From assembly GCF_003334335.1 (NCBI RefSeq), contig NZ_QOWQ01000149.1: 801 nt of DNA; one strand, written 5' to 3'. The first letter of the stretch is position 1. Every line of letters starts with the position of its first letter. A program made the position numbers and the translations under genes. Below the pieces are notes generated by a model. The model worked only from the letters and a program-made list of their open reading frames with translations. It searched no databases and was not told the DNA's origin. Below, one piece after another: positions 1 to 644 of this stretch. Origin of the DNA: Escherichia coli (lineage in GTDB: Bacteria > Pseudomonadota > Gammaproteobacteria > Enterobacterales > Enterobacteriaceae).

Positions 1-330
1 CCGGCAGAGCCGGAAGCTGCATCCGTAGCGGAAACCGATGGTAAAGCCTTTCCTCAGCCAGCAGGTGTTGCGTTACCAGTACAGGAAATGATGGCACAGG
101 AAGAAATGAAAACAGAAATCGTGGAAGACATTGTGAGGTTACAGCCATCGATCACCGAAATGAAAGCAGATGACCTGATTCTACCATCGCTGCATGTGGC
201 TAACCGCGAGCTGCGCCGGGCGAAAAGTGATGTCCAGAAGTGGGAGCGAGTCTGTGCTGCGCTGCGGGAACTGAACAAACACAGGGATATTCTCCGGGAT
301 ATTACCGCCACCAGAGAGCAGCAGCGGTGA
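1..330 (+). CDS. Hypothetical protein, probably 3' portion of a gene that begins upstream of the window. Charged, helix-like C-terminal tail after a Pro/Ala/Glu-rich stretch. Alternative internal starts at ATG 88 or ATG 91.
   Basis: The frame with codons at 1,4,7... has no stop from position 1 to TGA at 328-330, as I translated by hand (PAEPEAASVAETDGKAFPQPAGVALPVQEMMAQEEMKTEIVEDIVRLQPSITEMKADDLILPSLHVANRELRRAKSDVQKWERVCAALRELNKHRDILRDITATREQQR*). The ORF track starts at ATG 88, but AGGA at 83-86 sits only 1 nt before it (4 nt before ATG 91), which is poor spacing for a ribosome-binding site. The stop overlaps the GTG start of the next gene. I do not recognise a family. Confidence 0.6.
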   Translation, partial: PAEPEAASVAETDGKAFPQPAGVALPVQEMMAQEEMKTEIVEDIVRLQPSITEMKADDLILPSLHVANRELRRAKSDVQKWERVCAALRELNKHRDILRDITATREQQR

Positions 331-644
331 GTGGCTGGAAGAAGTGGCGCTGGGCTGAAATCCTGATACTCCGGCAGTGTGCGGGAACGATGAGAGTCGA
401 AAGCATCGGTTATCTGATTGGTCGTAGTGAGTCAGCCGTCAGGACGAAAGCGCGGGAACTGGGTATCAGCATGATTTTACGGGGTGATTTTCACCCGTCG
501 GCAAAATATTCACAGCGTGATATTGAGCTGGCGCGGCAACTGCATCAGCGTGGCGTACCCCGACGGGAAATTGCCGAAAAGTTTGGGATGAAGTTGGGCG
601 CAGTGAATAACTACGTTTATTTCGACAGGAGGGTTCAGGAGTGA
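327..644 (+). CDS. Small putative DNA-binding protein (105 aa) with two tandem helix-turn-helix-like repeats; GTG start overlapping the upstream stop. Alternative starts GTG 240 (ORF track) or ATG 390.
   Basis: Open frame 231..644 ending at TGA 642-644. GTG 327-329 overlaps the gene 1 stop TGA 328-330 (GTGA). Product from 327: MSGWKKWRWAEILILRQCAGTMRVESIGYLIGRSESAVRTKARELGISMILRGDFHPSAKYSQRDIELARQLHQRGVPRREIAEKFGMKLGAVNNYVYFDRRVQE. Two halves share the pattern RQ...(S/E)I(G/A)xx(I/F)G(R/M)(S/K)x(S/G)AV (ILRQCAGTMRVESIGYLIGRSESAV vs LARQLHQRGVPRREIAEKFGMKLGAV), a classic HTH layout. Starting at 240 would add about 29 residues of low-complexity sequence overlapping gene 1 in another frame; starting at 390 would cut off the first helix. 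Only a weak purine-rich stretch (AGAGAG 313-318) precedes 327, so the start is uncertain. Confidence 0.65.
   Translation: MSGWKKWRWAEILILRQCAGTMRVESIGYLIGRSESAVRTKARELGISMILRGDFHPSAKYSQRDIELARQLHQRGVPRREIAEKFGMKLGAVNNYVYFDRRVQE
627..641 (+). promoter_or_regulatory. Shine-Dalgarno region for gene 3: AGGAGG (627-632) and a second AGGAG (637-641), lying inside the 3' end of gene 2.
   Basis: Read directly: acAGGAGGgttcAGGAGtgagggtg. AGGAGG is 8 nt upstream of GTG 641; AGGAG is 5 nt upstream of GTG 647. Confidence 0.55.

Follow-up and report, generated by a model that had tools for sequence, protein, structure and literature searches.

The sequence analyzed here, hereafter the window, is a stretch of 801 nucleotides of Escherichia coli DNA that is 100% identical to the E. 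coli Eco889 chromosome (NZ_CP015159.1). According to the RefSeq gene table of this region (L001), the locus belongs to the early rightward operon of a lambdoid prophage: LexA-family repressor/Cro-like (cI/Cro-type) genes and replication genes are found on the 5' side of the three genes of the window, and RusA and a Q-type antiterminator on their 3' side, all on the same strand. This is the position that defines the early-right operon of lambdoid prophages, and relatives adjoin replication protein P and DnaT-like genes. An O157 strain carries a version of the locus with 94% identity. For all three genes (locus tags WM90_RS13300, RS13305 and RS13310 of NZ_CP015159.1), RefSeq/PGAP annotation of the identical sequence gives the same coordinates and start codons as those considered here. 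The features of the window are as follows:

1..330, + strand: gene 1, the 3' part of a DUF1627-domain gene that continues beyond the left edge (RefSeq CDS L001 5614-6330)
327..330, + strand: junction 1, GTGA, the gene 2 start GTG on the gene 1 stop TGA (direct reading)
327..644, + strand: gene 2, a predicted small helix-turn-helix (HTH) DNA-binding protein of 105 aa (RefSeq WP_001529167.1, L001 6327-6644)
345..389, + strand: the N-terminal motif W-x-R-A-E-I-L-I-L-R-Q-C-A-G-T of gene 2 (protein alignment A3)
627..632, + strand: AGGAGG, the predicted Shine-Dalgarno (SD) sequence of gene 3 (anti-SD duplex energy)
641..644, + strand: junction 2, GTGA, the gene 3 start GTG on the gene 2 stop TGA (direct reading)
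641..652, + strand: a 6-bp perfect tandem duplication, GTGAGG-GTGAGG, which yields the candidate starts 641 and 647
641..801, + strand: gene 3, the 5' part of a DUF4406 gene that continues beyond the right edge (RefSeq CDS L001 6641-6943)

In the PHROG search, gene 1 matched phrog_630 over its full length (E 2.6e-115), gene 2 matched phrog_323, 'transcriptional regulator' (E 2.3e-25), and gene 3 matched phrog_355, 'nucleoside 2-deoxyribosyltransferase' (E 4.7e-48). The gene 2 product, labelled 'hypothetical protein' in RefSeq, also gave weak Pfam HTH matches, and the search for a solved structure returned only weak HTH-like or repeat matches. PF14359 is present on every gene 3 homologue. NCBIfam gave nothing above its cut-off, PADLOC gave zero matches that would point to a defence role of the three proteins, no Rfam family was found in the window at E <= 1, and our literature search on DUF1627 and DUF4406 turned up neither functional nor expression work on the genes.

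The initial annotation of the window had described two GTGA stop/start overlaps, and these were confirmed by direct reading and by the list of open reading frames. Window 321-333 reads gcagcgGTGAgtg, where GTG 327-329 lies over TGA 328-330, and window 637-652 reads aggaGTGAggGTGAgg, which contains GTG 641-643, TGA 642-644 and a further GTG at 647-649. In the list, a frame-1 ORF ends at 330, a frame-3 ORF runs from 240 to 644 and the gene 3 ORF exits the right edge; ATG 390-392 shares its frame with GTG 327. Both junctions are thus 4-nt NTGA overlaps, in which three nucleotides are common to the stop codon and to an NTG in the frame of the downstream gene. The bare pattern is not beyond chance, as A, G or T before any TGA makes NTGA, which by composition happens about three-quarters of the time. 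Such overlaps are also the commonest kind of gene overlap in prokaryotes (PMC6728339). According to the gene tables, 20 of 55 adjacent same-strand pairs in the prophage and related early regions overlap by exactly 4 nt, with 4/17 adjacent pairs within the Eco889 prophage and up to 5/8 in related early regions. What exceeds chance, judging from the comparison of relatives, is the conservation of the overlapping start codons. The initial annotation had asked for conservation of the GTGA junctions in related prophages, and it was found at both: junction 1 is kept in 17 of 18 E. coli variants and the GTG of junction 2 in 120 of 120 contigs.

For gene 2, a protein search revealed homologues of 100-105 aa in Salmonella, Pantoea, Citrobacter, Enterobacter and Pluralibacter. 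When these are aligned, the motif W-x-R-A-E-I-(L/M)-I-x-R-Q-C-A-G-T precedes the Met of ATG 390 and is conserved in six genera. The differences from nine homologous DNAs in window 345-392, which covers the motif at 345-389 plus the ATG 390 codon, are distributed over codon positions 1/2/3 as 30/10/59, and this excess of third-position changes is the signature of a translated segment. As 345-389 is conserved as protein, translation should begin 5' of 345, and not at ATG 390 or at 363. In L004, L088, L090, L093 and L095, moreover, the NTG aligned with GTG 327 is the sole start codon that follows the nearest in-frame stop upstream and precedes the conserved Trp. Comparative evidence therefore points to GTG 327 as the true and evolutionarily maintained start of gene 2, and an overlapping NTG likewise qualifies as a genuine start, on the same kind of evidence, at junction 2 (see below). 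Window 363-389 is near-invariant as DNA among E. coli variants that differ by 10-18% elsewhere; in other genera it diverges at synonymous sites, so that it is apparently the protein (ILILRQCAGT) that is constrained.

Other starts for gene 2 were considered and rejected. GTG 240 would create a 91-nt overlap with gene 1, but in L004 its equivalent is cut off from that of 327 by an in-frame stop, and in distant homologues a stop precedes the start by 4-31 codons. ATG 390, the start that in the initial annotation would have made the first overlap coincidental, and the codon at 363 were both set aside: the motif upstream is conserved as protein with third-position-biased changes, Salmonella L095 has ATA where the window has ATG 390, and the codon at 363 is CTG. 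RefSeq is inconsistent for the gene 2 orthologues, which are called as 105, 93 or 84 aa. The 93-aa calls concern orthologues at 84-91% DNA identity that were started at the equivalent of window 363, and the 84-aa calls concern orthologues that were started at the equivalent of ATG 390; both leave an intact in-frame motif upstream. Discordant calls are found in L003 (1863-2144), in L004 and L005, and in L102-L104 (1201-1455). In L003, where the codon at 363 is CTG as in the window, RefSeq nonetheless places the CDS start there (WP_072127369.1), even though the stop-overlapping GTG and the N-terminal motif are intact. In the '84-aa' loci of E. coli, the motif is intact in a frame that opens with a GTG; this GTG lies over the stop codon TGA of a DUF1627 gene whose C-terminus differs (…REDVK before the stop; junction AAGTGAGATGG). 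The shorter versions of the HTH protein (93 aa, 84 aa and the one from CTG) are thus probably truncated start calls, and the comparison favours the 105-aa form over them.

The surroundings of the gene 2 start vary more than the start itself. Among 85 E. coli-type loci, junction 1 occurs as 18 distinct sequences, of which 17 have GTGA, including one with a codon deletion just 5' of the junction. The sole exception is a viral contig, L059 (~1133-1160), which has GTTA; this one change destroys both the gene 1 stop, so that 12 extra codons are read, and the gene 2 start, and either a mutation or an error in sequencing could explain it. In five other genera, the gene 2 start lies in ATGA, or in GTGA in Pluralibacter; for Pantoea, Citrobacter and Enterobacter, the stop codon that it overlaps belongs to an unrelated gene upstream. 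In total, the gene 2 start forms 4-nt overlaps with four different upstream genes in four genera, plus the second E. coli DUF1627 C-terminal variant, and the gene 2 stop likewise recurs in 4-nt overlaps with different downstream genes. Some homologues (in Pluralibacter and in two Salmonella contexts) lie 10-35 nt 3' of the upstream gene, and the overlap is therefore not required for gene 2 expression in general. These non-overlapping homologues have an SD-like GAGG or GGAGG upstream, which fits the idea of an overlap that substitutes for an SD. In two Salmonella loci without overlap, L086 and L095 (1460-1500), GGAGG lies about 25-30 nt before the ATG, and a short GC-rich inverted repeat (GGCGG…CCGCC) separates the two; a putative hairpin at this repeat might bring the SD nearer to the start, or might be a small terminator or stabiliser. 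In L086, an ATGA overlap after the gene 2 homologue opens an 83-codon ORF (1806-2057, MNSGTLGKNS…) that is absent from the source gene list.

For gene 3, the tandem duplication creates the ambiguity, as it adds two residues (Arg-Val) to the DUF4406 N-terminus of the window. At first sight, the canonical N-termini of the family appear to favour 647: 70 of 112 homologues begin M-(K/R)-(I/V)-Y-I-A-G-P. In the single-copy variants L021 and L022 (..CAGGAGTGAGGATTTAT..), however, this same beginning is obtained from the overlapping GTG, with the product MRIYIAGPM and the GTGA overlap retained. To compare the two candidate starts, viral contigs were scanned with a pattern that allowed any base ahead of TGA and at the third position of the second GTG; this yielded 120 matches in 31 distinct contexts, after either gene 2 or a DUF977 gene. 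The base before TGA is G in 120/120 of these phage contigs, even though the upstream gene ends in different codons (GAG, GCG, GTG or CTG), three of which would stay synonymous with any third base. The 647-equivalent codon, in contrast, is GTG in 86, GTC in 29, GTA in four and GTT in one, such that a start codon is absent in 34 contigs, and such a mix is what synonymous drift at an internal valine should produce. In 15 loci, where an alternative downstream gene follows gene 2, the junction is again GTGA. We thus take GTG 641 to be the true, conserved gene 3 start on the basis of these comparisons, and the scenario in which the real start is GTG 647 did not hold. In this particular window, extra initiation at 647, giving a shorter isoform, is a secondary possibility, as AGGAG lies five nt upstream of 647. 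A close relative, L063, carries an indel variant without CAGGAG.

The translation signals of the two junctions differ. The initial annotation had noted a weak SD before 327 as fitting reinitiation; our calculation agrees and finds this SD essentially absent, with an anti-SD duplex of -2.9 kcal/mol that is equalled or bettered by 62% of the window positions. Before GTG 641, the duplex reaches -10.8 kcal/mol, a value that only the top 1.4% of positions in the window attain. An SD inside the upstream gene is thus strong ahead of the overlap at junction 2 and absent at junction 1. The AGGAGG at 627-632 corresponds to the Arg-Arg codons of the conserved C-terminal YFDRRV motif of gene 2; of the 13 distinct junction variants in E. 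coli, 10 have it unchanged and three have AGGAGA or a variant following base, and in other genera the element persists as GGAGG or GGAGA. These Arg codons are two consecutive rare AGG codons, and the same prophage carries two tRNA-Arg genes and one tRNA-Ile gene about 6 kb downstream (L001 12603-12769). A link between these tRNA genes and the decoding of the AGG codons is only a thought. As the frames of gene 2 and gene 3 differ by -1, and as rare AGG-AGG codons and an SD-like sequence precede the stop, a programmed -1 frameshift fusing gene 2 to gene 3 was also considered; inspection of 621-644 by eye revealed no X-XXY-YYZ slippery heptamer, and this candidate was rejected. RNA structure that might mask the starts was not found, with the folds of 295-365 (z = -0.89) and 610-680 (z = +0.40) being no more stable than shuffled sequences, and structure-based coupling is therefore without support. 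No promoter-like or terminator-like site was found in the window, in agreement with the proposal that the three genes form one co-directional operon. The further statement that there is no room for internal promoters is correct for the intergenic space only, as promoters can lie inside genes.

Taken together, we consider it quite probable that the window is an early-operon stretch of three closely packed accessory genes, with both GTG starts real, reinitiation at 327 and the NTGA junctions serving as portable, generic joints. The stretch follows the replication genes of a lambdoid prophage and precedes its nin-type, RusA and Q antiterminator genes, and in it three small accessory genes (encoding the DUF1627 protein, the 105-aa HTH protein and the DUF4406 protein) run head to tail, each GTG sharing three bases with the preceding TGA. 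A ribosome ending at TGA 328-330 would reinitiate at GTG 327, without a usable SD. At junction 2, reinitiation would be aided or replaced by de novo initiation on AGGAGG 627-632. Translational coupling at the junctions is plausible by analogy with tested pairs: of five native E. coli gene pairs overlapping by 4 nt, four showed coupling through termination-reinitiation, the dependence on the SD differing between pairs, and bioBF was the one pair that initiated de novo (Huber et al. 2019, PMC6728339). By the same analogy, coupling is most likely at 327, because a weak start codon is combined there with the lack of an SD; gene 2 output would then probably depend on translation of gene 1, and gene 3 would probably be translated both by reinitiation and by SD-directed initiation.

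The neighbours of these genes bear on what the overlaps might be for. Upstream of the gene 2 homologues we find DUF1627, NinX, RecT or DnaC-like genes, or unknown genes, and downstream we find DUF4406 or several unrelated small genes; DUF4406 is also found behind DUF977 or DnaB. The conserved partners expected of subunits in a stoichiometric complex were not found, as the neighbours differ among phages and genera. Homology to the DUF977-DUF4406 prophages starts at 638, three nt before GTGA, and the loci with the alternative downstream gene diverge after window 634. With homology edges at 634-638 and swapped partners, NTGA can therefore be regarded as a generic joint between interchangeable phage modules. 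Mosaic breakpoints are found at window ~290-296 and at 634-638; homology to the Rac-SA53 and PPompW phages covers window 1-296 only, which leaves about 35 nt to the gene 1 stop. A further step would be to see NTGA and the SD in the Arg-Arg codons as a portable linker, in which …CAGGAG(G)…GTGA… acts as a microhomology that favours mosaic joints. We regard this extension as distinctly unlikely, and the breakpoints at 634-638 fit it and selection for functional joints after random recombination equally well. If true, the linker would allow unrelated phage modules to be joined and expressed at once.

Three other explanations need to be considered. If the overlaps were coincidental, the real starts would be ATG 390 and GTG 647, each behind a short untranslated spacer. 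ATG is the preferred start codon, and some orthologues are indeed called from the equivalents of 390 or 363 (84 aa, 93 aa); phrog_30109 begins at gene 2 residue 22, phrog_31170 and phrog_5781 begin at gene 3 residue 3, only two residues stand before Y-I-A-G-P in 70/112 of the distant DUF4406 proteins, and 647 has the AGGAG mentioned above. The same explanation, however, would have to account for an untranslated spacer at 345-389 that is conserved as protein across genera, for the ATA of L095 at 390, for an SD that is weak and just 2 nt away from ATG 390, for CTG at 363 in both the window and L003, and for a 647 codon that is GTC, GTA or GTT in 34/120 contigs when 641 is GTG in 120/120, and for single-copy variants in which the overlapping GTG itself supplies the canonical N-terminus. 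Conservation largely refutes coincidence, which we hold to be very improbable. More credible, but still unlikely in our view, is that the starts are real and that functional coupling is lacking, the junctions being a by-product of compaction and of selection for workable mosaic joints, with each gene initiated independently. The SD at junction 2 is strong and well spaced and could drive fully independent initiation, the module breakpoints lie at or adjoin the junctions (634-638, with the alternative downstream gene as well as in the DUF977 context), some homologues have no overlap, and bioBF, one of the five tested E. coli pairs, was initiated de novo (PMC6728339). For GTG 327, on the other hand, a weak start codon with no SD makes efficient independent initiation hard to explain; SD-like GAGG or GGAGG appears where gene 2 homologues do not overlap, and the other four of the five tested pairs were coupled (PMC6728339).

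The initial annotation had also proposed that the overlaps fix the stoichiometry of the products. In its full form, this would mean that the overlaps enforce fixed proportions because the three proteins form a complex. Subunits of complexes usually co-occur, whereas gene 2 and DUF4406 each have several unrelated neighbours, and such interchangeable partners argue against a stoichiometric complex. Among overlapping gene pairs of the same direction, subunits of heteromeric complexes are reported to be over-represented (PMC10666635). Fixed stoichiometry nonetheless finds no support, as partners have been swapped freely among phages while the NTGA junction has persisted, and we consider the complex extremely improbable. 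In the reading that we prefer, the NTGA junction would be a portable way to join interchangeable modules, with no sign of fixed protein proportions.

The junctions are ordinary, already known biology, and their exact coordinates are already present in RefSeq. Indeed, this type of junction is textbook biology and the commonest gene junction in such phage operons, where it accounts for about a third of adjacent pairs. What our analysis adds is the resolution of the 105-aa start, the 6-bp duplication behind the two gene 3 starts and an SD that derives from conserved Arg-Arg codons. Beyond annotation quality, namely the correct starts of two small prophage genes, the significance is small. As a more general point, a conserved third position in the last codon of the upstream gene, together with synonymous drift at the rival start, can decide start sites without experiments.

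Chains of overlapping small genes have long been described for the nin region of phage lambda; Kroger and Hobom reportedly presented such a case in 1982 as 'A chain of interlinked genes in the ninR region of bacteriophage lambda'. Like the nin/early-right chains of lambdoid phages, the present locus lies between the replication genes and Q and consists of small accessory ORFs linked by ATGA-type overlaps. Unlike in the lambda nin chain, the genes are those of DUF1627, an HTH protein and DUF4406, and they directly follow the replication genes; mechanistically, there is no difference between the lambda chain and these junctions. When compared with coupled operon pairs joined by ATGA or GTGA (PMC6728339, PMC10666635), the genes are similarly co-directional and share a 4-nt stop/start overlap. 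As in the pairs of Huber et al. (PMC6728339), the SD of junction 2 lies inside the upstream coding region, and as in some of the pairs tested there, junction 1 has little or no SD. The two GTG starts, however, set this locus apart from the known coupled pairs, which start with ATG. Coupling here is argued by analogy, and what the overlaps join are interchangeable accessory genes of phages, not subunits of a complex.
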